Part shown: piece by piece, positions 3,760 to 62,708 of the stretch
Layout: each line of letters opens with the position of its first letter
How positions within the stretch are numbered: the stretch's first letter is position 1
DNA from: Clostridium sp. CAG:302
GTDB lineage: Bacteria > Bacillota_I > Bacilli_A > RF39 > UBA660
Length of the DNA: 64,000 bases
Reading direction: 5' to 3'
NCBI GenBank assembly: GCA_000431795.1
Contig: FR887372.1
Span: 3,087 to 67,086, forward strand
Notes under the pieces: model-generated
What the model saw: the letters and a program-made list of their open reading frames with translations, nothing else
Told to the model about the DNA's origin: nothing
The model's database searches: none
Made by a program: the position numbers and the translations under genes

Positions 3760-3962
3760 AGAAAAAAGATGATACCATAAAAGGACGAATTAATATCCGC
3801 GGTACCACCTTTCTTTATAACATAAGTTATACTCTTAAATCTTTAACCTGATTAACGGTATAAAACTAAAGGGTGAATTCATACTAAATAATTAACTCTT
3901 CTTTCACCCTCTAAGAGCTCGCTAATAATTATTTTTATAGTATTACTACTTCCTCATCACTG
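3760..3962 (-). promoter_or_regulatory. T-box riboswitch leader (presumed Phe-responsive) with terminator
   Basis: Minus strand contains GAAAGGUGGUACCGCGG (top 3796-3812), matching the conserved T-box sequence AGGGUGGNACCGCG. Upstream is a Stem-I-like AGAGGGUGAA...UUCACCCU helix. Downstream is a hairpin plus UCUUUUUUCUUUUUU run. It lies upstream of the operon ending in pheS-pheT. Confidence 0.7.
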
Positions 3963-3967
3963 TCTTA

Positions 3968-4510
3968 TTATATAGTCATTAAATCTTTTTCTTTCTCTTT
4001 TAATTTTTCATCTACAATTTTATTATATTCATTAATTAAATCTTGTACTCTTTCATTACCTCTTTTTTCTTCATCCTCAGGTAATTCTAAGTTTTCTAAT
4101 GCTTTATTAGCATCTTGTCTAATATTTCTAAGAGCTATTTTTGCTTCTTCACCTAACCCTTTAACTTGTTTTACTAATTCTTTTCTTCTATCTTCAGTAA
4201 GTGGTGGTATTACTATAAATACTACTTCTCCATTGTTATTAGGAGTTACTCCTAAATTAGCTTCAAAGATAGCCTTTTCTATTGCTCCAAGACATGATCT
4301 ATCAAATGGTTTAATAGATAATTGCCTAGCCTCAGGTATAGATATATTTGCTAAACTTTTAAGTGGTGTTGGTACTCCATAATATTCTACCATAATACCA
4401 TCTAACATATTAGGATTAGCTCTACCTGCTCTAACATTAGTAAACTTGTTTTCTAAAGATTCAATTGTTAACATCATCTTTTCTTCTGTACTATTTAATA
4501 TTTCTTCCAT
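3968..4510 (-). CDS. frr: Ribosome recycling factor
   Basis: The 180-aa product carries the typical RRF sequence (MLDGIMVEYYGVPTPL...IPPLTEDRRKELVK). Confidence 0.9.
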   Translation of the reverse strand: MEEILNSTEEKMMLTIESLENKFTNVRAGRANPNMLDGIMVEYYGVPTPLKSLANISIPEARQLSIKPFDRSCLGAIEKAIFEANLGVTPNNNGEVVFIVIPPLTEDRRKELVKQVKGLGEEAKIALRNIRQDANKALENLELPEDEEKRGNERVQDLINEYNKIVDEKLKEKEKDLMTI

Positions 4511-4731: not shown

Positions 4732-4771
4732 TCCAATATATTTTACAATAGATATTTACAAAATAAACTTT

Positions 4772-4830
4772 CACAATAGAGACCTTAGGCTCTATTGTGC
4801 CTCTTAAGACTTATCTTAAGACTTAAGAGG
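4772..4830. repeat. Double-hairpin palindromic repeat element, copy 1 of 5
   Basis: cacaatagag-accttagg-ctctattgtg followed by cctcttaag-N13-cttaagagg. The same architecture occurs at 27050-27102, 56891-56942, 59776-59829 and 61977-62030. Confidence 0.8.
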
Positions 4831-4841
4831 ATATATAATAA

Positions 4842-5991: not shown

Positions 5992-8103
5992 ATGAATATG
6001 AATAATCCTTATGAAGAAAATTTACAAAAGCCCTTAGAAAAATATGGTAGAGATATTACTAAGGCCGCTAAAGATGGTAAAATTGATCCAGTTATTGGTC
6101 GTGATGAAGAAATAAGAAGTATTACTAGAATACTTTCTCGTAAAACTAAAAATAACCCTGTATTAATTGGTGAACCTGGTGTTGGTAAAACCGCCATTGT
6201 AGAAGGTTTGGCACAAAGAATAATTAAAGGCGATGTTCCTAATAATCTAAAAGATAAGACTATTTGGGAGCTAGATATGGGTGCCCTAGTTGCAGGTGCT
6301 AAATACCGTGGTGAATTTGAAGAAAGACTAAAAGCCGTACTAAAAGAGGTAAAAGATTCTGAAGGTAACATTATTATGTTTATTGATGAAATACATATGA
6401 TTGTAGGTGCTGGTGCTCTTGAAGGCGCTATGGATGCTGGTAATATGTTAAAACCTATGCTAGCTCGTGGTGAAGTACATTGTATTGGTGCTACTACCTT
6501 AAATGAATATCGTAAATATATTGAAAAAGATGCTGCACTAGAAAGAAGATTTCAAAAAGTATTAGTAAAAGAGCCTACTGTTCTAGATACTATTACTATT
6601 CTTCGTGGCCTAAAGTCTAAATTTGAAGTATTCCATGGTGTAACAATTAAAGATAAAGCTTTAATCGCTGCTGCTACCCTATCTGATAGATACATTACTG
6701 ATAGATTCTTACCAGATAAAGCTATTGATTTAGTTGATGAGGCTGCCGCTACTATAAAGGTACAAATGGAATCAGTTCCTACTGCTCTAGATAATCTAGA
6801 AAGAAATATTATGAGACTTGAAATAGAAAAAGAAGCCCTAAAGAAAGAGAAAGATAATATTTCTAAAAATAGAATTACCGAGATAGACAAAGAACTAGAT
6901 AATCTTAAATTAAAAGAAAAAGATCTAAAGACCAAATGGGAAGAAGAAAAGACTGTTAATACTAAGATTAGTAAAAAGAAAGAAGAAATAGATCGTGCTA
7001 ACTTTGAATTAGAGACTGCTGAAAATAACTATGATTTAGAAAGCGCCGCTAGACTAAGACATGGTACTATACCTAAACTAGAAAAAGAACTAGCCTCCCT
7101 TGAAGAGATTAATAAATCAGAAATATTATCAGATACAGTTGATGAAGAAAGCATCGCCGCCATTATATCTAAATGGACTAATATACCAGTATCTAAATTA
7201 GCTGAAGGAGATAAAGAAAAGTTACTACATCTTGAAGACAAAATGAAAGAAAGAGTTAAAGGCCAAGATAATGCTATTCACTTAGTAACTGAAGCCATTA
7301 TTCGTTCAAGAGCGGGTATTAAAGATCCAAATAGACCAATTGGTTCATTTATCTTCTTAGGACCTACTGGTGTTGGTAAAACTGAAGTAGCAAGAACTCT
7401 AGCCTATGAACTATTTGACGATGAAAGACATATGATAAGAATAGATATGTCTGAGTATATGGAAAGTCATTCAGTAGCTAGATTAATTGGTGCCCCTCCA
7501 GGATATGTAGGATATGACGAAGGTGGACAACTTACCGAAGCTGTAAGAAGAAATCCCTACTCTATTGTCTTATTTGATGAAATAGAAAAAGCTCATCACG
7601 ATGTCTTTAATGTACTACTACAAATACTAGATGATGGTAGAATAACCGATGGTCAAGGTAGAACTGTAGATTTTAAGAATACTATCATAATAATGACATC
7701 TAATCTAGGTAGTGAATATATCTTAGATAATAAAGATAATGCTAATGAACTTGTAATGCAAGAATTAAGAAGTACTTTTAAACCTGAGTTCATTAATAGA
7801 ATAGATGAAATAATAATCTTTAATTCTTTAACTAAAGATGTTGTTTATGATATTCTAAATAAAATTATCAAAGATATTGAATATAGATTAAGAGATAAAA
7901 ACATTAAAATAAATGTTACAGATAAAGCCAAAGAGTTTATTGTAAATGCCTCATATGATGAAAAATATGGTGCTAGACCTATAAAGAGATATGTTCAAAG
8001 AAATGTAGAAACTCTAATCGCAGAGGCTATCATTAATGATAAAATATCTTTTGGTAGTACCATTACTATCGATGTAGATAGTGATAAATTAATATTAAAA
8101 TAA
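5992..8103 (+). CDS. clpB: Chaperone ClpB lacking the N-terminal domain
   Basis: Two AAA+ modules ([15 protein letters not shown] and [15 protein letters not shown]) separated by a long coiled-coil M-domain. The N-domain is absent. The track start at 5983 is GTG; the ATG at 5992 has better RBS spacing. Confidence 0.85.
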
Positions 8104-8778: not shown

Positions 8779-9588
8779 ATGGGAAAGGAAAATAATAATC
8801 GTTTTTATGAAGATTTTGACAGAGTAAATAGAGAATTAAATCAAATTACTAATGGACCTAAAAAAGAACAAAAGGCAATAGATCCTAAAAGAAAAATATT
8901 TGATGGTGAACATGACCCAGATCCATCTGATGTTTTTGACAAGTGGGAAAGAGAAAAAAAACTCAATTCTGTAGTAGCTAGTTATCCAACTTCAGAAAGT
9001 AATGTTGAATTTTTAAAAGCAAAAAGAGAAATACTAAAAAAGGAGCAAGAAAAAGCTAAACAAAAAAAGAAAAAAGCATTTAAAAGAACTATCGCTGGTG
9101 TTTTAACTGCTGCTACTTTATATGCTGGAGTTAAAATTGGTCAAAAGATGGAAGATAATTCCAAAATTAATAAAGCAACACAAACACTCGTTGATTTGAG
9201 TGAAGATACTTTAACTGAATATGGCTTAGGAACTAAAGAAAATGGTAAGTTTGAAATAGGAAATAACTCTGTATCTGATTATAGTGTATTAGATGCCAAT
9301 ACACCAATGGAAGTATATATTTATAAATTAGCTATTAATGATAATGAAGAATTTAATAAATTTATTCGTAGTGTATCTTATAGTGATGGTGTATACTGTT
9401 ATGAAAGTTATGAGCAGTTTTTAAGAATTAATGGCTATTATGATCAGACAAGTAATAAAATAAGTGATGAAGTTTTTAGTAATATAATGCGTGGAACACT
9501 TTTAACTGCTTATGAAAATAGTACTTTAAGTTCTTATGAAAACGAATATTATACTACTAACTTAGATAGTGAACCTAAAACTAGATAA
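8779..9588 (+). CDS. Hypothetical membrane-anchored protein
   Basis: The 269-aa ORF has a good RBS (AGGAGG), a charged N-terminus, one transmembrane segment (IAGVLTAATLYAGVKIG) and a C-terminal domain of unknown function. Confidence 0.5.
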   Translation: MGKENNNRFYEDFDRVNRELNQITNGPKKEQKAIDPKRKIFDGEHDPDPSDVFDKWEREKKLNSVVASYPTSESNVEFLKAKREILKKEQEKAKQKKKKAFKRTIAGVLTAATLYAGVKIGQKMEDNSKINKATQTLVDLSEDTLTEYGLGTKENGKFEIGNNSVSDYSVLDANTPMEVYIYKLAINDNEEFNKFIRSVSYSDGVYCYESYEQFLRINGYYDQTSNKISDEVFSNIMRGTLLTAYENSTLSSYENEYYTTNLDSEPKTR

Positions 9589-10559: not shown

Positions 10560-10633
10560 TGGTGCCAAATGTAAGAATCGAACTTACCTCTAGGCATTAC
10601 GAGGGCCTTGTTCTACCACTAAACTAATTTGGC
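10560..10633 (-). tRNA. tRNA-Thr (anticodon CGU)
   Basis: The reverse complement folds as a cloverleaf: acceptor GCCAAAU/AUUUGGC, D-arm GUUUAGUGGUAGAAC, anticodon arm AGGCC-CUCGUAA-UGCCU (U33, anticodon CGU, A37), T-arm GUAAG-UUCGAUU-CUUAC, then an encoded ACCA. Confidence 0.75.
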
Positions 10634-10683: not shown

Positions 10684-13600
10684 TTATATTTTTTCTAAAG
10701 TATTATTAGTAACTGAATATAGATATATATTTGTAGGTTTATTAAATCTATTCTCTATATAGTCTTTATAACCATTTAATTGTTTTAAATAAGCTTCATC
10801 ACTAATATTCTTTAATTTATAATCAATTATTTTAATATTATCTTTATATACTAACATTAAGTCTATAATACCATGATAAGTAGTATTATCTTCTTCATAT
10901 ATAAATTCATATTCTTTATATATATCTGTATTGTCTATATTAACTTTATCTAAGAAATTAGTTATTATCTCTCTATTCTTACCAGTTAAATTACTAGTAT
11001 TATGAAAGTCTGTTAATTCAAATAACTCATGGACTTTCTTACCATAATCAAGTCTATCCTGTTCTTCTTTTGAAGTAATATGAATATTCTTCTTAGAAAA
11101 AGATTTTTCTTCTTCTTTTTGAATATCTATATTAATATCTTGAACGTCTAGTTTATCCTCTACTCTACCTAGTAATTTATTATAATTATCATTCTTAACT
11201 AAGTTATAATTCTTAGATAAATCAATACTATTAATATCAATATTTTTATAATAACTCTTAGTAATAGATTCTAACGAATACATAATACTAGCAAAACTAT
11301 TATATTTTGATCTAATACTATCATCAATAATATCACTAATATACTCTGCTTCTTCTTTAGTATTCTCTGGTAATATAAATATCATTTTTTCTTTAGCTCT
11401 TGTTAGTGCAACATAGAAGAGTCTTATTCGTTCACTAATATTTTCTAATACATAGTTTCTATAACTTAAATTATGATAAATAGTATTATATAAGAATTTA
11501 TCTTTATAAGGAATAATAATACCATACTTATCGTCATAACTAAATTTACTTATAGCTTCCCTAATATTAAATTTACTATATAATCCCCCGTAGTAGCAGA
11601 CATTAAACTCTAGTCCTTTTGAAGCATGAATAGTCATAATTTTTACTGTATTATTACTACTTTCAGTAACATTATATTCTATCTTCATACCACTTTCTAT
11701 AATGTCCTCTAAATATTCACTATATTTATATATATCATAATCTAAATTAGTTAGATTACTAGTAATTTCTTTTAATTTATCTATTCTAATAATATTTGAA
11801 GAATAATCTCCAAGTAAAAATAATTTATTATAAAAATCATATTTATCAATAATTATATCAATTATTTCATCTAAACTAATTGTATCAAGATCCTTAGTAA
11901 TACCATAACTAATCTTATAAATATCGCTATCTTTAAAATTATTATTTAGAAAATAATCAAATATTATATTATCATCTAAATTAAAGAGAAAACTTCTAGC
12001 TATTGATATAAATAATTTTTTAAATTCATTATCTATAACATTATCTTTAATCTTTATAATAAAACCAATTATATTCTTTATTATAGTAATTACTTCACCA
12101 TCAGTTAGATTAACTGATTTCACAATACTCGTAGGAATATCATTATATTCTAAAATCTTTTTATATAGTTCAAATGACTTACTACTATCAAGTAAGATAG
12201 CAAAATCACTATATTTAGCCTTTCTAATACCTTTAGTATCTTTACCAAAGATTGGATAACCATTAATAATTTTATTTTTAATATCACTAGCTATTATAAA
12301 AGCTTCTACTTCGTCTTTTTTAAATATTGTATCATTAAGATAACTATATACTTCAAAGTTATTATTTACCCCGTTGTCACCATCACCTTGATACATAGGA
12401 TTACCATATACCATTCTATGACTTACTTTATATGAAGCTCCTCCAATAGTATCATCCATTATTCTATCAAACATTAAATTAATATTATTAATAACTTCTT
12501 CTCTACTTCTAAAGTTTTTATTTAGATCTATCTTAATACCATTAATATTCTTACTATATGAATCATATTTATTTTTAAATATATATGGATTAGCATTTCT
12601 AAATCTATATATAGATTGTTTAATATCTCCAACCATATAGACATTATTATTAGATATATATGCAATAAATTCTTCTTGAACATCATTAGTATCTTGATAT
12701 TCATCAATCATTATTTCATTTAAATTATTCTTAATTTCTTCTCTTATCTCAGTATTATTTTTTACAAGTTCTATTGCATAAGAAGATATATCACCATATT
12801 CAAAGTAATTATATTTACTTTTATATTCTGATACTCTTTTATCTAATTCTTTTATTATCGTTATTATTTCTTCTACATAATCTTTAGTCTTTAATATACC
12901 ACTCTTTATACTATCATAATTATCATATATAACTAATTTTTTTATTTCTTTAATAGTATTAGATATTTTATCTTTATATTCTTTAGTGGTATCTGATACT
13001 CCCTTAGCTATAGGAAGTTTAACTTCTAAATTAAGTTTAATATCATCGTAATCACCTGAAGATAACAAAGGACTAAGTACCTTATATATCTTATCAAAAT
13101 AATCACTATCATCTATATATTCTAAATAATCTCTAATATTATTAATTAAATTTAATATTACTTTGGTATAATTATCTATATCTTTATCAATATTTTCTTC
13201 ATTATATTTAATGCTTATATAACTATCTAAATATTCTCTCTTATTAGTCTTTAAATCTAATTTATTATTAATATTTAAAATAAAACTAAATATTTCTTTA
13301 TCATCTTTTAAAGCATATTCTTTAATTAGATTTAAAAACTTAGAGTCTTCACTAGTATATAACTCTTCAAAAATATCTTTAAGCATTTTCTCTTTATATA
13401 ACCCTATTACTGAAGCATCTATAATATTAATATCTTTAGATAGATTTAAATAGTAGTGGTATTTTTTAACTAGTGATAAAGCATAGGCATCAAATGTTGT
13501 TATATCAGCAGTATCTAGTTTAGATAGTTCTTTAGTAAAACCATTTTCTTTTAATTTTTCTCCTATTCTCTCACGCATCTCTTTAGCGGCCATTTTAGTA

Positions 13601-17373: not shown

Positions 17374-17447
17374 TATACCACCTAGATATATTATTGCATA
17401 AAACTAATAAAAAGTAAACCCTACCCTAGTTATTTTATTATGTTCAC

Positions 17448-17535
17448 TATAAGCCTTACTTTGTAAGTCTTATTAGTGTTATTTTGAGCCTTAAGTCTCA
17501 AAATAATATATCTACATATCTATTATATATAAGCA
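17448..17535. repeat. Intergenic palindromic repeat, family 2 (copy B)
   Basis: aagccttactttgtaagtct...gagccttaagtctc...aatatatctacatatctattatatataagc. It shares modules with 4596-4735 and 19420-19490, and in inverted orientation with 41640-41700. Confidence 0.7.
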
Positions 17536-19303: not shown

Positions 19304-19419
19304 TTTAAATCACCAATTTAATTATATAGTATTTTATACTATTTTTCAACTATTTTATGCACTTTAATCCTAAGGTATTAAAGTGTTATTATTAGCCTAT
19401 AGTCTAATAATAATGTGTC

Positions 19420-24441: not shown

Positions 24442-24464
24442 AATTTTTAACCTCCTCTTATATA

Positions 24465-24600
24465 TGATTATTATCTTGTTACAATTTTGATTTTGTTTTT
24501 TTATAATAATCTAATGAGCATATACACCCAATGTAGTATCCGCCGAAAACTCGATAACTACATACCTCGTTAACTATTTCTAGTCTGGCGCTAATTTATA
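24465..24600 (-). ncRNA. glmS ribozyme (GlcN6P-responsive self-cleaving leader)
   Basis: Minus strand reads AGCGCCAGACUAGAAAUAGUUAACGAGGUAUGUAGUUAUCGAGUUUUCGGCGGAUACUACAUUGGG, matching the glmS ribozyme core (AGCGCCAGAACU...GACGAGGAUGG.GGUUAUCGAAUUUUCGGCGGAUGCC). It is followed by RBS AAGAGGAGG and the glmS ATG. Confidence 0.85.
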
Positions 24601-24691
24601 TTTTCTTCTCCCTTCTATAATATAAACTTTATTACATTATATCAGAATATTAAAAACGTGTAAACATCTGTAGTTACAATTAACTATTGGT

Positions 24692-26960: not shown

Positions 26961-27049
26961 GTATCTAATATACTATCATAAAAGTTCTAAATAGTAAAGA
27001 AAAAACACCTATATAAATGTTAGTTTTTTTATTAATTATATATAATTAT

Positions 27050-27102
27050 CATAACATAGACCCTAGGCTATGTTATGCCTCTTAAGACCTTGGCTTAAGA
27101 GG
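27050..27102. repeat. Double-hairpin repeat element, copy 2 (downstream of rplQ)
   Basis: cataacatag-accctagg-ctatgttatg followed by cctcttaag-accttgg-cttaagagg. Confidence 0.8.
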
Positions 27103-27145
27103 AAAGAAAAAGAGATACCTAAATTAATAGATATCTCTTTATATA

Positions 27146-56787: not shown

Positions 56788-56890
56788 AGTTCCTCCTTAC
56801 TAAATAATACTAACTAGTAATAACCTATAGAAGATGTTTTCATAGACAAAAAAAGACTTTAATTTTTTATATTCTATAATATAAATGTTT

Positions 56891-56942
56891 AACAATGAAG
56901 ACCTTAGGATTCATTGTTCCTCTTAAGACTACAAACTTAAGA
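56891..56942. repeat. Double-hairpin repeat element, copy 3
   Basis: aacaatgaa-gaccttagg-attcattgtt followed by cctcttaag-actacaaa-cttaagag. Confidence 0.8.
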
Positions 56943-56993
56943 GATAAAAAAAGATAACCAATTATTATAAATATTTATAATAGTTATCCATTT

Positions 56994-58600: not shown

Positions 58601-59122
58601 TTATAATTCTATTACTCTTACATCTTCTTTATATTTTTTAATTGAAGTAACTATTTTATTCTTATATTGAATAGGAAACATAAGTTTCATTTTAGAAGTA
58701 TTAAAATTTATATTTATAGAATATTTTCCTATTATTATACTTGATATTTGATCCATTTCCAATTCTATTTTACATTTATTAAATTCATCAGTAATAGTGT
58801 TTTCATTTATAATTAATGTACCACCAACATTACCATCTTTAAAGACTTTATAATTCTTTATAAATAAGATCATATAAGATAAATAAGATACTAAAAAGTA
58901 TATTGATATATATTTTAAAATATTAGTAAAAATAGTAGGTTCTATTCTGTCAACTACAAAAATATAAAATGCAAATACAAATATATATAATATACATTTA
59001 AATATTTGATTAACTATAATTATATTACCAGCCTTTTCTATCTTCTTAAGTCTTTGGCTTATTACAGTTAATTCATTATAATATTTAAATGTTTCCCTTG
59101 ATGCTTCATATTTTATTTTCAT
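58601..59122 (-). CDS. Hypothetical membrane protein (two transmembrane segments plus C-terminal PH-like/YcxB-like domain)
   Basis: The 173-aa product has no clear motif. Confidence 0.4.
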   Translation of the reverse strand: MKIKYEASRETFKYYNELTVISQRLKKIEKAGNIIIVNQIFKCILYIFVFAFYIFVVDRIEPTIFTNILKYISIYFLVSYLSYMILFIKNYKVFKDGNVGGTLIINENTITDEFNKCKIELEMDQISSIIIGKYSININFNTSKMKLMFPIQYKNKIVTSIKKYKEDVRVIEL

Positions 59123-59239: not shown

Positions 59240-59743
59240 TTACTTATCTTTTCTTTTTATTCCTTTTAATAGAGTTCCAGTAATACCATTTTCTATAACA
59301 CCTTTTACTGTACCTCTAGTATCAAATCCAAGTACATCATCTACTTTATCAAAAGCATTTTTAACCTTTTTTACGCCACGATCAGACATAGTTGTACCTG
59401 TTACAGCATCAGTAACTTTAGTAACAAATTTTACTGCTTCAATAGCATTATCAAACTTAATAGTAAAGTTATTTTTAATAGTTTGTATGTATACTTCACT
59501 ATTCTTTTGATGAACTTGTACCTTATTATTATATAACTTAATATCACTAATATTTACTATATTAATTACTTTTTTATTTTCTTCTTTCTTTAAAAGACTT
59601 ACTTTTTTAATTTCTACCTTTTCAATTATTATCTTTTTTGAAGTAAGTGTTAATAATAATTTATCTTCTACATCATTATAATATACTTCTGTAGTTAATA
59701 ATATTACTTCATCTTCCGCTAGTTCATAATTTTCCATATTCAT
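59240..59743 (-). CDS. Hypothetical protein, possible bacterial PH-like domain
   Basis: The 167-aa product starts MNMENYELAEDEVILLTTEVYY... Its promoter/RBS/first 5 codons are duplicated upstream of the ATPase gene. Confidence 0.45.
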   Translation of the reverse strand: MNMENYELAEDEVILLTTEVYYNDVEDKLLLTLTSKKIIIEKVEIKKVSLLKKEENKKVINIVNISDIKLYNNKVQVHQKNSEVYIQTIKNNFTIKFDNAIEAVKFVTKVTDAVTGTTMSDRGVKKVKNAFDKVDDVLGFDTRGTVKGVIENGITGTLLKGIKRKDK

Positions 59744-59847
59744 TCCTCCACATATATTATATCACATAAATACTTCATAACATAGACCTTAGGCTATGTT
59801 ATGCCTCTTAAGACTACAGGCTTAAGAGGACATATACAAAAAGCAAT
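59733..59847. repeat. About 115-bp direct repeat, left copy (contains double-hairpin element copy 4, an extended -10 promoter and RBS/ATG)
   Basis: About 93% identical to 61933-62049. Confidence 0.85.
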
Positions 59848-59868
59848 AAATTTATAAAATATTATCAC

Positions 59869-60822
59869 CTAAAATTTATTCTTAAAATCATTCATAAATT
59901 TCTTATATTTATTAAATTCATTATCCTTATTATTTATTTGAAGAACATATAATATTTTTCCATATAGTATATTTATATATTTTTCTTTTTCTATATCTAT
60001 ATTTCTTTTCTTTAAGTGAGATTCCAAACCAAATTTTCTTATATAATATATTTCCTGTCTTATTTCTTTACGATATTTTGCACTAACCTGTACTTTTTCA
60101 TTAACTACTATTCCAGTTACATTTTGATTAGATGATTTATGTATTATATGTATTTTTTTATTATTTAATTCTAATCCTAACTTATATAACATTTTTCTTA
60201 CTTTAACTATAACTTCTCTTGGATTAAATTCTCCTGAAAATGTCATATCATCTGAATATCTTGTATACGATATATTATTTTCTTCACACCATAACCCTAA
60301 TACTTCATCAAACTCTTTCATTACTAAATTTGAAATATATGCAGATGTAGGAGCACCTTGCATTAGATAATCATCATAAGTACATAAATAAGTTAATATC
60401 ATCCCTACTGATTTAGGAAAATATTCTATTGAAAAACAAGAATTGTATACATCTATAAAAGATATATTTTCAAAAAAATCTTTAATATCTAATTTTAAAA
60501 TTAATTCTTTATTTAAATGTGGAATAGCATTATCTTTCAAATTAATACCCTTATGGTATGCTTTTGCATATTTAGATATTGCTTTATTATCAAGAATTTT
60601 TACTAATATTTGCCTTTGAATATGCTTTAAAAGTGAATTTGGTTCATATATCGTTCTATATTTCCCATTTTTCTTTTTTATTTTATATATTTTATAATTG
60701 TTTTCTATATTATTACTAATAGAATAAATGGTATTCAAATATTTCTTTTTATCTTTACAATTAAACAATTTGAGAGATAGTAAAAATTCATTACATTCTT
60801 CTTTACCTATGTATTTCCACAT
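59869..60822 (-). CDS. Retron-type reverse transcriptase
   Basis: RT motifs 1-7: KKKNGKYRTIYEPNSLLKHIQ, LDIKDFFENI, LMQGAPTSAYISNLVM, YTRYSDDMTFSG (cf. Ec86 YTRYADDLTLS), and the retron-specific NQNVTGIVVN (VTG motif). Likely start MWKYIGKEE, with RBS GGGAGG 8 nt upstream. The 5' 69 nt of the track ORF belong to the upstream ncRNA region. Confidence 0.85.
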   Translation of the reverse strand: MWKYIGKEECNEFLLSLKLFNCKDKKKYLNTIYSISNNIENNYKIYKIKKKNGKYRTIYEPNSLLKHIQRQILVKILDNKAISKYAKAYHKGINLKDNAIPHLNKELILKLDIKDFFENISFIDVYNSCFSIEYFPKSVGMILTYLCTYDDYLMQGAPTSAYISNLVMKEFDEVLGLWCEENNISYTRYSDDMTFSGEFNPREVIVKVRKMLYKLGLELNNKKIHIIHKSSNQNVTGIVVNEKVQVSAKYRKEIRQEIYYIRKFGLESHLKKRNIDIEKEKYINILYGKILYVLQINNKDNEFNKYKKFMNDFKNKF

Positions 60823-61012
60823 CTTTACTACCTCCCAACTATTGCAGTGCTCATGATATTGTAATATGGAGATGAACTCAAAGCGTAGCATAGCGAAGCG
60901 ACTACATGAAATGTAGGTAAGTTCATTGAAGTATTACTATTAAATCATCTTAAATAAATTAGTCCCTTAACGACTCGTTAAAGTAGGAAATAATTCCAAT
61001 CACCACTGCCGA
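60823..61012 (-). ncRNA. Candidate retron msr-msd non-coding RNA
   Basis: A locally GC-enriched, highly structured 190 nt sits between an extended -10 promoter and the RT RBS. a1/a2 inverted repeats are GGCAGUGGUGAU (61011-60999) and AUCAUGAGCACUGC (60857-60844). msr-like hairpins are GGAAuuauUUCC and UUAACGaguCGUUAA. A long msd-like stem AUGAACU...AGUUCAU encloses CUACAUuucAUGUAG. Confidence 0.65.
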
Positions 61013-61016
61013 GAAT

Positions 61017-61027
61017 ATTATATCACA
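61017..61027 (-). promoter_or_regulatory. Extended -10 promoter (TGTGATATAAT) for msr-msd/RT
   Basis: Minus-strand TGtGATATAAT lies immediately after the ATPase stop codon. Confidence 0.55.
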
Positions 61028-61033
61028 ATAATT

Positions 61034-61900
61034 TTATTTTTTATCAAATTCTTCTTCATATTGTTTAAAAAAATTATAGTATACTAATACATTAGATAGT
61101 TCTGTCCATTTTTTTGTTACAACAGGTGTATCATCTAAATCATAAATCTTAGCGTCCATTAGTTTTAATAAAAATGGTGAATGTGTTGATATTATAAATT
61201 GACAATTATAAAATCTAGTAGAGTCTTCAATAAACCTTTTTAACTTCAATTGATTTTCCGCAGATAAACTATTTTCTGGTTCATCTAATATATAAATACT
61301 ATCTTCTTTTATCTCTCTTTCCCAAAACATAAGTGCAGATTCACCATTTGACCATTCAATTATATTATTATTACCTAATCTTTCTCTAACAAATTTAGAC
61401 ATTGATTTTCTTTTACTATCATAACTCATTTTTAATTCATCATAATTATCAAAAGAGTTACCATTATTATTAAATTTATAATCTAAATATTCTTTACTTA
61501 ATCTTTCCTTTTGTCTATTAACATTTGCATTAATAGAACGAACATCTATTAAATAATCAAAAACATCATCACTTGTAATTAATTTTATTTCCATTGGTTG
61601 TTCAAAAGACATTTCATAATCACAATGTTCAACATATAAATCAAAATATGAACCTTTATCTATTGGCGACTTCCTTGATGCATTTAATTTTTGTGAAATC
61701 ATATTTATAAGAGTTGTTTTACCAGAACCATTACCACCATAAAATATTGTTATTTTATCAAAATTTATCTCTTTAAATGATTTCGATGAAAATAAATGAA
61801 GTGGATAATTATTATTAAATATGTTTCTTCTCTCTTCATTAAATTCAATATTATGTTCTTGGATTTCATCTAATAATGTAAATTTTTTTAAATAAACCAT
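61034..61900 (-). CDS. ABC/OLD-like AAA ATPase (Walker A GGNGSGKTT, Walker B ILDEPE, H-loop STHSP); candidate retron effector/accessory protein
   Basis: The 288-aa product has the complete minimal ABC-type ATPase motif set. It sits immediately upstream of the msr-msd promoter, with its own TGGTATAAT promoter and RBS AGGAGGTG. Confidence 0.7.
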   Translation of the reverse strand: MVYLKKFTLLDEIQEHNIEFNEERRNIFNNNYPLHLFSSKSFKEINFDKITIFYGGNGSGKTTLINMISQKLNASRKSPIDKGSYFDLYVEHCDYEMSFEQPMEIKLITSDDVFDYLIDVRSINANVNRQKERLSKEYLDYKFNNNGNSFDNYDELKMSYDSKRKSMSKFVRERLGNNNIIEWSNGESALMFWEREIKEDSIYILDEPENSLSAENQLKLKRFIEDSTRFYNCQFIISTHSPFLLKLMDAKIYDLDDTPVVTKKWTELSNVLVYYNFFKQYEEEFDKK

Positions 61901-61932
61901 TTTTCACACCTCCTGATAAATTAAATTTATTC

Positions 61933-62049
61933 TCCATATTCATTTCCTGCACATATATTATACCACATAAATACTTCATAACATAGACCTTAGGCTATGG
62001 TATGCCTCTTAAAACTACAGGCTTAAGAGGATATATACAAAAAGCGATA
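61933..62049. repeat. About 115-bp direct repeat, right copy (contains double-hairpin element copy 5 at 61977-62030)
   Basis: It pairs with 59733-59847. It retains a vestigial MNMEN start codon context, now out of frame with the ATPase gene. Confidence 0.85.
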
Positions 62050-62177
62050 GGACTCTCGACCTATCTACATATAGCATTAATATTATGTATCTTTAAATTT
62101 AAATAATTAATTTTAATAACATTTAAAGTTTGAAAATAAAACTTGACAATTTTGTTACCTAAATGTTACCTAAAAAA

Positions 62178-62708
62178 TTATCTAGTATGTCGTCTTAAAG
62201 TTTCATCACTAGTTATTAATTCTGAAATTGAATTTCTCTGTAATTCTCGTAATTTAGAATAACTCTCTAAAAATTGTTTTTGATCTATTTTTCCTGTATT
62301 TAAAGCATGTAATAAATCTTGATACTTTATTTCCATTAATTCATATAATTTTTTTAACTTTTCTAAATACAAATTATCAATATGTTTTTCAAATTCAGTT
62401 CTAATTGCTTCTCCTTCAAATAAATCAGCTATCATTTCAATAGCAATATCACGTGAAATAATATTAGCTCTATGTATCTTATCAATTTCTTGTATTTTTG
62501 AAAAAGTGCTTTCAGATATCATATCAAATGATTCAGGAATATCATATCTAACTCTAGAATTTACTCCCCTTTGAGCAACAACCTGTTTTACTAAATTTAA
62601 TGTTTTTTTATCATCAATTAAAATAGAATTATTTACAGCATTTATAGATAAATTATTATCAACTACGTTTATTTCCTTAAAATCTTTTTTATTATTTATA
62701 TCAGTCAT
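62178..62708 (-). CDS. Hypothetical protein (176 aa)
   Basis: ORF with no recognisable motif. Confidence 0.4.
   Translation of the reverse strand: MTDINNKKDFKEINVVDNNLSINAVNNSILIDDKKTLNLVKQVVAQRGVNSRVRYDIPESFDMISESTFSKIQEIDKIHRANIISRDIAIEMIADLFEGEAIRTEFEKHIDNLYLEKLKKLYELMEIKYQDLLHALNTGKIDQKQFLESYSKLRELQRNSISELITSDETLRRHTR

Follow-up and report, generated by a model that had tools for sequence, protein, structure and literature searches.

Repeats flanking a predicted retron as probable boundary modules of stacked islands at an RNA-gene attachment site beside recG

The repeats that bracket a predicted retron in the window (the whole 64,000-nucleotide stretch of DNA analysed here) are probably, at a likelihood we put near 55%, boundary modules of decayed islands that lie in tandem at an attachment site in an RNA gene, lack an integrase, and include the retron in their cargo. 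An island array at such a site belongs to an already known kind of system. Read this way, an apparent footprint of retron mobility becomes a mapped, testable integration hotspot. Its attachment site, the tail of a conserved putative sRNA beside recG, and a recombinase family of related species were identified, and its allelic states were catalogued as empty, fic plus retron, full stack, restriction-modification cargo, and other cargo. The retron here would travel as island cargo, and its flanking repeats provide no evidence for self-mobile retrons.

The segment between the repeats carries three retron parts and a discrete left breakpoint:
59869..60822, minus strand: retron reverse transcriptase (RT), 317 aa; PADLOC RT_Ec107-like, E=1.3e-130; Pfam RVT_1
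60826..61012, minus strand: presumed retron ncRNA (msr-msd); a1/a2 pairing GCAGUG...CACUGC, TGTGATATAAT box just upstream
61034..61900, minus strand: ABC-type ATPase, 288 aa, retron accessory gene; AAA_15/AAA_21, weak PtuA/AriA-like matches
61913..61916, minus strand: TCAG, left breakpoint of the retron segment, from comparison with locus L060

This cassette is a predicted retron, as it combines an RT of a retron clade, an adjacent ncRNA with a1/a2 pairing, and an accessory gene in conserved synteny. The RT is best described by the Ec107-like model, followed by III-A models; a scan of viral contigs with it returned no close relative, the sole match being 31% identical over 75 aa. The presumed ncRNA folds with a1/a2 pairing and msd-like stems in a retron-like architecture, at a folding energy that is not significant, and found no Rfam match. 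The ATPase gene has its own Shine-Dalgarno sequence (AGGAGGTG) 5 nt upstream of its ATG and adjoins an RT gene at three other loci (L085, L089, and L091). The ATPase-ncRNA-RT unit also occurs at unrelated loci in other bacteria.

The two repeats and their surroundings comprise the following features:
59240..59737, minus strand: 165-aa gene, or 167 aa if the first ATG is used; resident gene on the right flank of the hotspot
59729..59848, minus strand: repeat copy C (left copy), a 5'-truncated module by sequence comparison
59745-59749, minus strand: RBS GGAGG of copy C, with ATGs at 59743 and 59737
59756..59764, minus strand: extended -10 box TGATATAAT of copy C, read from sequence, with TATAAT at 59756-59761
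59776..59803, minus strand: hp2 of copy C (CATAACATAG-CCTAAGGT-CTATGTTATG), from the fold; terminator-like in the scan too
59804..59829, minus strand: hp1 of copy C (CCTCTTAAG...CTTAAGAGG), from fold and covariance model
61866..61943, minus strand: vestigial 25-codon ORF (MNMENKFNLSGGVKNGLFKKIYIIR, then stop), overlapping the ATPase start at 61900
61917..61937, minus strand: fic stub of 7 codons (ATGGAGAATAAATTTAATTTA), identical to the full fic start downstream of copy A
61917..62069, minus strand: repeat copy B, full extent; part common to copy C, 61929-62049
61957-61962, minus strand: TATAAT of copy B (in TGGTATAAT)
61977-62004 and 62005-62030, minus strand: hp2 and hp1 of copy B
62046..62065, minus strand: hp0 in copy B (GATAGGTCGAGAGTCCTATC then GCTTTTTGT), terminator-like in the scan
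62178..62708, minus strand: 176-aa gene (g176), which closes the fic...g176 part of the island

The first-pass annotation had reported a pair of repeats of about 115 bp, roughly 93% identical. Alignment of 59729-59848 with 61929-62049 gave 93.4% identity over 121 nt with one 1-nt indel, and the longest ungapped portion (59743-59848 versus 61944-62049, spacing 2201) matched at 94% over 106 nt. The 400 nt upstream of the ATPase aligned locally with the 400 nt downstream of the RT at a score of 98.5, whereas shuffled controls scored 12.1 ± 1.7 with a maximum of 21.5 (z ~50). Both copies carry the double hairpin, a TGnTATAAT box, and ATGAATATGGA(A/G)AAT, as that annotation had said; its RBS holds for the left copy (GGAGGAATG), while the Shine-Dalgarno sequence of the right copy is degraded (GCAGGAAATG). 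Copy C begins within the T-run GCTTTTTGT of a terminator, without the terminator stem or att core, and continues through hp1, hp2, extended -10, RBS, and the start of the 165/167-aa gene. The left copy does start the described 167-aa frame, which public gene calls shorten to 165 aa by using the second ATG; domain and profile searches found no family match for its product. Its TGATATAAT box is the presumed promoter of the 165-aa gene and is kept in empty-site relatives. A simple sigma-70 consensus scan flagged neither the promoter of B nor that of C, so the promoter call rests on the extended -10 motif, position, and conservation; promoter-like sites in that scan were not in excess (30 versus 26.1 ± 5.4).

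The right copy proved real but longer than first described, and it is one of three rather than one of two. Every relative with the island has a third copy, A, upstream of fic; this lies just past the end of the window, which itself stops inside a 362-aa gene of the fic...g176 island. Copy B is homologous to copy A at 91-95% identity over 153-158 nt, including hp0 and the first 7 fic codons, and contains in order an att core remnant (TGtAG), hp0, hp1, hp2, TGGTATAAT, a degraded RBS, and the stub. Because this match to A runs through hp0 and into fic, the short frame that overlaps the ATPase start is a putative fic stub within a fic-upstream module and not, as had been proposed, a duplicate of the 167-aa gene start.

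Comparison with relatives, all of them metagenome assemblies in which repeats of such size can cause chimeric joins, supported the first-pass view of an insertion hotspot whose repeats are footprints of insertion or recombination. Ungapped empty sites free of Ns, in the order recG, sRNA, one module, 165-aa gene, were found in three strains of the same species (L056, L062, and L065) and in a sister species (L026). The recG genes of these three strains are 99.5-99.8% identical in nucleotide sequence, and the whole 6.4-kb fic-to-RT island is absent from them, in agreement with the claim that the retron is accessory cargo. The L056 module haplotype has private SNPs and is common to scaffold L001, which was set aside as an empty site on account of a 10-N scaffold gap. 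Other cargo occupies the same place, each time followed by a module copy, in L029/L067, L028, and L069 (restriction-modification), and in L041 and L039 of other species. A duplication lacking the cassette had been named as counting against the retron insertion, and this was partly observed: the reiterated repeat brackets RT-free cargo in L028, L029, L069, L039, and L041, which shows that the repeat belongs to the locus and not to the retron. Two further loci were left out because their assemblies may be chimeric: L059 (a PNPase-RT fusion ORF) and L082 (the gene preceded by the module of another locus).

The unit that varies between relatives is either the whole fic-to-RT island or, in L060, fic plus retron, never the 2.1-kb cassette alone that had been taken as the inserted unit. 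In L060, a fic pseudogene is joined to the retron at the TCAG breakpoint, and g292...g176 and copy B are missing; the same TCAG joins the fic stub in the window and the fic 3' end in L060. Copy B is nearest to the recG-proximal copy of L060, with 6 differences in 149 nt and a derived T in hp1 in common. The edge in identity over window-type A copies is small (6 versus 7-13 differences). Exact matches to the 176-aa and 165-aa proteins led to 20 long contigs, which are uninformative on variants because all share the full arrangement. Their island DNA is 99.9-100% identical and their flanks 98.4-99.7%, a comparison biased by the choice of loci through exact g176 or g165 protein matches.

Immediately 5' of the locus come recG and a conserved putative small-RNA gene, the latter found at this place in 16 species. 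Predicted from sequence, this gene, with an expected transcript of about 95-100 nt, has a promoter, two stems with covariation at some pairs, a C-rich tract that is unpaired and invariant, and terminators that differ between species; the tract is anti-Shine-Dalgarno-like and flags a candidate regulatory RNA. Neither the putative sRNA nor the module matched an Rfam family (the module gave only caiA, E=0.57), and no tRNA or tmRNA gene was found at the site. The 3' end of this predicted small stable RNA appears to be the target. The island-distal copies start at a common point in its tail, at CCCCCTGAAG in L029, L069, and L041, at CCCTGAAG in L028, and at TGtAG in B, their left boundaries clustering but differing (-10, -8, and -5 nt). 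A direct repeat of the target 3' end marks the distal boundary in B, L028, L029, L069, L039, L041, and L046, and hp0 of copy B repeats the terminator hairpin of the sRNA with one stem mismatch. Since copy C has neither att core nor terminator stem, the retron itself does not lie between two canonical att sites.

Related species supply the recombinase. A tyrosine integrase (PF00589) sits directly beside the sRNA in L037, L038, L046, L051, and L055 and about 3 kb downstream of it in L042; an integrase homolog also follows recG in L048. These integrases form one family of 39-78% identity across seven related species. All six that were scanned (L037, L038, L046, L051, L055, and L042) are encoded on the strand opposite to the sRNA, half of them with an arm-binding domain, and a Mob_Pre relaxase accompanies the integrase in L037 and L055. 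The L046 element spans 7.8 kb and has an exact direct repeat of 16 nt, ACCCCCTGAAGGAGCC; CCCCCTGAAG is the left edge of the direct repeat in an integrase-bearing element. Arm-like conserved sequences (TTTCAACTACC) adjoin the cores in L039, L041, and L037. Among about 60 loci of the window's species complex, no integrase of this family was found within 10 kb of the site, which makes the window array integrase-less, resembling a decayed cis-mobilizable element (CIME); the cargo of L028, L029, L041, L059, L060, L069, and L070 likewise held no integrase or transposase.

Based on these comparisons, we propose that, in the window's lineage of uncultured gut Bacilli, a family of mobilizable elements with tyrosine integrases attaches to the 3' tail (CCCCCTGAAG plus terminator hp0) of the conserved putative small-RNA gene that follows recG. 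Past that tail, the module of the window's species would run through the REP-like hp1-hp2 into the promoter, RBS, and start of whichever gene comes next. Every entering island would bring or regenerate one module, giving a tandem stack with one module between each pair. The window's stack would thus run sRNA, copy A, fic...g176, copy B, ATPase-ncRNA-RT, copy C, and 165-aa gene, with no integrase. As seen in L060, an older fic and retron island may once have lain between a full module and module C, whose 5' side is eroded. Entry of another fic-led island (fic...g176) at the sRNA site could have come next, after which the redundant resident fic would have been deleted to 7 codons, leaving B fused 17 nt upstream of the ATPase start. 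An intermediate with two full fic copies was not observed among the relatives. Deletion through microhomology, with TTAATTTAA common to the fic 3' end and the stub, was rejected, as this route does not reproduce the observed junction and would leave 20 nt. Copy B may end transcription of the upstream operon and drive that of the retron operon, and copy C may be the promoter of the 165-aa gene. All copies would be substrates for homologous recombination, able to delete or exchange cargo. The repeats here measure 120-190 nt and that of the intact L046 element 16-35 nt; for repeats this long, the elements would have had to carry the module in full, or gene conversion would have had to follow.

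Homologous recombination alone is the alternative that survives best, and we consider it possible, if rather unlikely. The 120-190 nt modules would then be nothing but portable homology through which cassettes were gained, stacked, and lost, by RecA-dependent unequal crossover or by Campbell-type integration of circularised DNA after transformation, with no site-specific recombinase ever having acted in the species. This would suit the missing integrase in the window's species and the clustered but non-identical left boundaries. It also fits mosaic copies that show crossover or gene conversion inside the module, namely the first copy of L060, where a C-type promoter is joined to fic, and B, in which A-type sites stand beside C-type ones; the L079 module could likewise be an A x C recombinant. 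However, homology leaves unexplained why distal copies in at least five independent settings of cargo, and in other species whose terminators differ, share a start at CCCCCTGAAG, the sequence that also edges the repeat of an integrase-bearing element, and it ignores the arm-like sequences beside the cores.

Insertion of the 2.1-kb ATPase-ncRNA-RT cassette into the module upstream of the 167-aa gene, with duplication of about 115 bp, is very unlikely. The high identity of B and C, their bracketing of exactly three retron parts, the discrete left breakpoint common to two contexts, and the presence of the cassette as a unit at other loci all agree with it. Yet B has 12 more fic nucleotides (codons 4-7) and a fic-type ATGGAG, unlike the 167-aa gene start, and a terminator stem absent from C; in L060, the retron and copy C occur without copy B. 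Such an insertion also requires an empty site in the order g176, one repeat, 167-aa gene, the check that had been suggested. Searches of the 93 fetched loci with junction patterns found this order in none, and the minimal order sRNA, repeat, stub, retron was equally absent (0/93).

Least credible is a retron-linked insertion at terminators that duplicates 70-120 nt of local sequence. Its support comes from L085, an unrelated locus where the cassette is conserved as a whole (82.8% nucleotide identity over 2013 nt) and a direct repeat of local sequence, 50-88 nt long, again lies on either side of the retron (score 25 versus a shuffle maximum of 18, z 9.2). The downstream repeat copy there is without part of the upstream gene's terminator hairpin, reminiscent of the stem missing from copy C. 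Herzer et al. are said to have reported in 1992 that retron Ec107 replaces a 34-bp palindrome. Against this, no flanking repeat was found at L089 and L091, which carry the same retron, and in the window's lineage the same repeats flank RT-free cargo. The L085/L091 locus is probably another island hotspot, with an upstream locus common to both and a large serine recombinase near L091. We know of no mechanism for retron insertion with a long target duplication. A transposon target-site duplication was rejected, as the repeats vary at their ends and measure 120-190 nt, the cassette ends show no reported terminal inverted repeats, and the cassette encodes only ATPase, ncRNA, and RT.

Within the module, only hp1-hp2 behaves as a REP-like element, with multiple dispersed intergenic copies and a conserved hairpin structure. 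Its covariance model gave five strong matches in the window (78-96 bits, all on the minus strand), three of them away from the hotspot:
4765..4836, minus strand: dispersed hp1-hp2 copy with compensatory changes in the hp2 stem
27043..27108, minus strand: dispersed hp1-hp2 copy just after a terminator
56884..56950, minus strand: dispersed hp1-hp2 copy between TilS-like and P-type ATPase genes, its place stable in relatives
Further copies occupy conserved places in relatives.

Under the island-boundary reading, the locus offers a route to study gain and loss of defence systems in an abundant, uncultured human-gut lineage. A bolder proposal, which we judge unlikely, is that the ~190-nt module is a self-contained landing pad and expression adaptor for integrase-less defence cassettes (retron, Fic, and restriction-modification), driven in trans by sRNA-specific tyrosine integrases. 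If true, it would be an integron-like platform in which cassettes are stacked, swapped, and immediately expressed behind a conserved sRNA in reduced-genome gut Bacilli.

Several known systems resemble parts of this arrangement. Like REP/BIME elements, hp1-hp2 is a short, lineage-restricted intergenic double palindrome whose several dispersed copies point the same way as the genes and closely follow terminators, with compensatory hp2 stem changes; its copy number in this comparison covers 64 kb only. The RT resembles the Retron-Eco5 (Ec107)/type III-A clade in its best and next-best models. The Ec107 branch is described as having no specifically associated protein (Mestre et al. 2020, PMC7736814), unlike the present cassette, in which a 288-aa ABC ATPase precedes ncRNA and RT. 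As in integron arrays, cassettes with defence cargo are stacked beside a fixed site and separated by hairpin-forming repeats. An integron cassette array was nevertheless rejected: the module consists of three separate hairpins and a promoter in place of an attC-type single imperfect hairpin with R/L boxes, its boundaries are not uniform (copy C and L029 copy 3), integron cassettes are mostly promoterless, and no IntI is present (no intI-like gene within ±10 kb on the 20 contigs).

The closest parallels are tandem islands at a single target gene. In Dehalococcoides, multiple tandem islands lie downstream of the single-copy small RNA gene ssrA, the target being tmRNA, with a serine recombinase and a 20-bp repeat (PMC3146451). 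There as here, each island ends with a direct repeat of the RNA gene 3' end, some islands are without integration genes, and intact members keep the integrase module beside attL on the reverse strand; here the RNA has no Rfam match, the integrase is a tyrosine recombinase, and the repeat modules are longer and composite. In the Streptococcus ICESt1/CIME family, integrative mobilizable elements and decayed CIMEs accrete in tandem at a target gene 3' end (PMC5704250). Unlike that family, the 120-190 nt repeats extend beyond a short att core to a promoter, RBS, and start codons, the copy nearest the resident gene is eroded, and the window array is integrase-less at the site. Like it, the islands lie head to tail at one attachment site, each bounded by a repeat of the target 3' end, most without integration genes and with defence genes among their cargo, and close relatives have empty sites and alternative cargo.

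Every gene in the retron part of the window lies on the minus strand. In order of transcription, the features are:

62708-62178, minus, 176-aa gene (g176), followed by the right repeat (copy B)
61900-61034, minus, ABC ATPase
between ATPase and reverse transcriptase (RT), minus, non-coding stretch of about 200 nt
60822-59869, minus, RT, followed by the left repeat (copy C)
59743/59737-59240, minus, 165/167-aa gene

Copies B and C aligned over 106 nt at 94% identity without gaps, and over 121 nt at 93.4% with one indel allowed (59729-59848 versus 61929-62049). The alignment score was 98.5, compared with 12.1 ± 1.7 for shuffles. Both copies carry a double hairpin (hp1 and hp2), a TGnTATAAT box and ATGAATATGGA(A/G)AAT, and the short frame of B is a 25-codon ORF overlapping the ATPase start. 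The first-pass annotation was therefore right about the paired repeats of about 93% identity around the retron, their common elements and the vestigial frame in the right copy. The repeat is genuine and informative, and it belongs to a hotspot for island integration.

Contigs encoding an identical 176-aa or 165-aa protein include 20 long ones that reach past the window, all with one gene order: recG, an intergenic region, a third repeat (copy A), fic, four more genes and the 176-aa gene. A and B are homologous over 153-158 nt at 91-95% identity. Upstream, the match is bounded by a terminator hairpin, hp0 (62065-62046), and downstream by ATGGAGAATAAATTTAATTTA, the first seven fic codons, which in B are fused 17 nt upstream of the ATPase start. 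A match spanning hp0 and these codons shows that B is a fic-upstream module with fic reduced to a stub, rather than a duplicate of the 167-aa gene start as had been proposed. C shares just the inner part of the module, beginning in the T-run after hp0 without the hairpin stem, and is not a canonical attachment-site copy.

Allelic states of the locus were collected in two scans, one with RecG against one genome per species and one of metagenomes with the 165-aa protein as query; every comparison sequence was a metagenome assembly. Loci fetched from relatives (L-numbers) showed four states:

(i) empty site: recG, intergenic region, one module, 165-aa gene (L056, L062, L065, L026)
(ii) full stack as in the window (L006-L025, L057, L058, L068, L080)
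(iii) fic+retron: recG, module, fic pseudogene, 20 nt, retron, copy C, 165-aa gene (L060)
(iv) other cargo: a 9-kb set encoding a different Fic together with a glycosyltransferase, a radical-SAM protein and NUDIX (L029/L067); two small genes (L028); methylases and an HNH endonuclease (L069)

Empty-site contigs contain no Ns; L056, L062 and L065 are from the same species (recG 99.5-99.8% nt identity) and L026 is from a sister species. The L056 module haplotype, common to scaffold L001, carries private SNPs. The L060 retron starts at the TCAG breakpoint also used in the window, and this locus lacks both copy B and the g292...g176 genes of the fic-led island. Each state (iv) cargo is followed by a further module copy. 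In L041, from a species with only 74% RecG identity, two repeats of about 280 nt enclose an 8.7-kb island that carries fic along with a zeta toxin and a HinP1I-type restriction system; the second repeat includes a decayed fic. These states at one site uphold the proposal of an insertion hotspot at the repeat. The further claim, that insertion of a 2.1-kb retron left the repeats behind, did not hold: the empty site that it predicted (176-aa gene, single repeat, 167-aa gene) was found in 0 of 93 loci, a third copy exists, and B is a fic-upstream module.

Several species carry Fic-domain genes of different kinds at the locus or close to it. The first gene past the small RNA described below encodes a Fic protein in L039 (12400-13404), L041 (8151-8843), L029 (7797-8705) and L006 (6572-7246), and in L026 a Fic gene (12119-13174) comes right after the 165-aa gene. 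The 173-aa gene (window 58601-59122) has two alleles about 7.5% apart (nt) in one species, and L026 has a Fic_N gene in its place; therefore, variability extends to the right flank of the hotspot as well. In L070 (9767-10360), L071 (3664-4104) and L072, the 165-aa gene up to about residue 47 is swapped for unrelated upstream sequence, which points to a second recurrent breakpoint inside this gene. In L059 (6857-8038), one ORF consists of the N-terminal two thirds of PNPase joined to the final 80 RT residues, with copy C after it; this reflects either a chimeric assembly or a rearrangement.

The intergenic region directly 3' of recG contains a predicted small-RNA gene, conserved down to 53% RecG identity (L006:6373-6472, just past the right end of the window; also in L026-L055, and inverted in L036). 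Its predicted promoter is TTGTAA, 17 nt, TATGAT. The RNA has two hairpins with covariation at some pairs, an invariant unpaired C-rich tract, AUAACCAAAACCCCCUGAAG, resembling an anti-Shine-Dalgarno sequence, and a species-specific terminator. It matched no Rfam family, tRNA or tmRNA, and is possibly a new RNA gene serving as island target. Tyrosine integrase genes adjoin it on the opposite strand in five loci, and in L042 a related integrase is encoded about 3 kb downstream:

L037:12240-13391, minus, adjoining integrase
L038:11393-12505, minus, adjoining integrase
L046:5455-6615, minus, adjoining integrase
L051:12231-13346, minus, adjoining integrase
L055:12258-13406, minus, adjoining integrase
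L042:15132-16241, minus, downstream integrase

These integrases form one family (39-78% identity), and L048 has a homolog after recG. A Mob_Pre relaxase is found beside the integrase in L037 and L055. The element in L046 spans 7.8 kb, and the 16-nt sequence ACCCCCTGAAGGAGCC is repeated exactly, in direct orientation, at its two ends. Internal module copies share a start point in several genomes: CCCCCTGAAG in L029, L069 and L041 (also in the second cores of L039 and L041), CCCTGAAG in L028 and TGtAG in window copy B. Together, the adjacent integrases and the common start point to the small-RNA tail as the predicted attachment site. The reiterated modules would then be the boundaries of islands stacked at this tail. 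No integrase was seen at the recG/small-RNA site in the window's own species.

A three-step history is the likeliest account of the window. An older fic+retron island would have lain between a full module and the eroded module C, a state preserved in L060. A second fic-led island (fic...g176) would have entered at the RNA tail, and deletion of the duplicated resident fic to its seven-codon stub would have left B; the two-fic intermediate is hypothetical. B differs from the first L060 copy at 6 positions in 149 nt, with a derived hp1 base in common, and is slightly farther from window-type A (7-13 differences). Mosaic promoters in B and the L060 copy show that homologous exchange between copies also occurs. 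Across the 20 contigs, identity was 99.9-100% in the island and 98.4-99.7% in the flanks, which fits recent spread of the island, in a comparison biased by locus selection.

Within the stack, hp0 of B may serve as terminator for the upstream operon and B may supply a predicted TGGTATAAT promoter for the retron operon, whose ATPase has its own Shine-Dalgarno sequence. C may supply a predicted promoter and RBS for the 165-aa gene. A simple promoter scan of the window did not support the promoters proposed in B and C. The hp1-hp2 pair is a separate REP-like element, confined to this species complex, with five strong copies in the window, all co-oriented with genes. The dispersed copies, just after terminators, and weaker hits are:

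4765-4836, minus, dispersed hp1-hp2
27043-27108, minus, dispersed hp1-hp2
56884-56950, minus, dispersed hp1-hp2
19353-19419 and 17438-17512, plus, weaker hits

The hp1 arms are CCTCTTAAG/CTTAAGAGG, and hp2 shows compensatory stem changes around a conserved loop, GCCTAAGGTC. The window has 26% GC and carries, on its minus strand, a T-box leader (3778-3969), tRNA-Thr(CGT) (10560-10633) and a glmS ribozyme (24457-24603), consistent with a Firmicutes/Bacilli-type genome.

The ATPase-ncRNA-RT unit of the window has counterparts at unrelated loci in other bacteria; the coordinates, with those of the window first, are:

59869-61900, window, retron unit
L085:7001-9028, retron unit
L089:5001-7018, ATPase-RT pair
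L091:5001-7028, ATPase-RT pair

The L085 unit matches that of the window at 82.8% identity across 2013 nt, an alignment that begins at the ATPase start codon and extends close to the RT end. Direct repeats of local sequence, 50-88 nt long, lie on either side of it (6714-6797 and 9013-9078; z 9.2). The last RT codons extend into the downstream copy, where the terminator of the upstream gene is missing its loop and 3' arm. No flanking direct repeat was found around the units in L089 and L091, and no close relatives of the RT were found in viral contigs. In L087, a 74%-identical ATPase is paired with a DUF5680 gene without an RT.

The retron is cargo of the island. Its RT is retron-type and matches an Ec107-like model (E=1.3e-130). 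In the published classification, the Ec107 branch is described as having no associated protein (PMC7736814), whereas this RT pairs with a 288-aa AAA_15/AAA_21 ABC ATPase encoded upstream of the ncRNA. The stacking of islands at the small-RNA tail follows a pattern already described, in which elements accrete in tandem and decay until they lack an integrase (PMC5704250; PMC3146451). The genome architecture is of a known type, to which this locus adds a further case whose target may be a new RNA gene.
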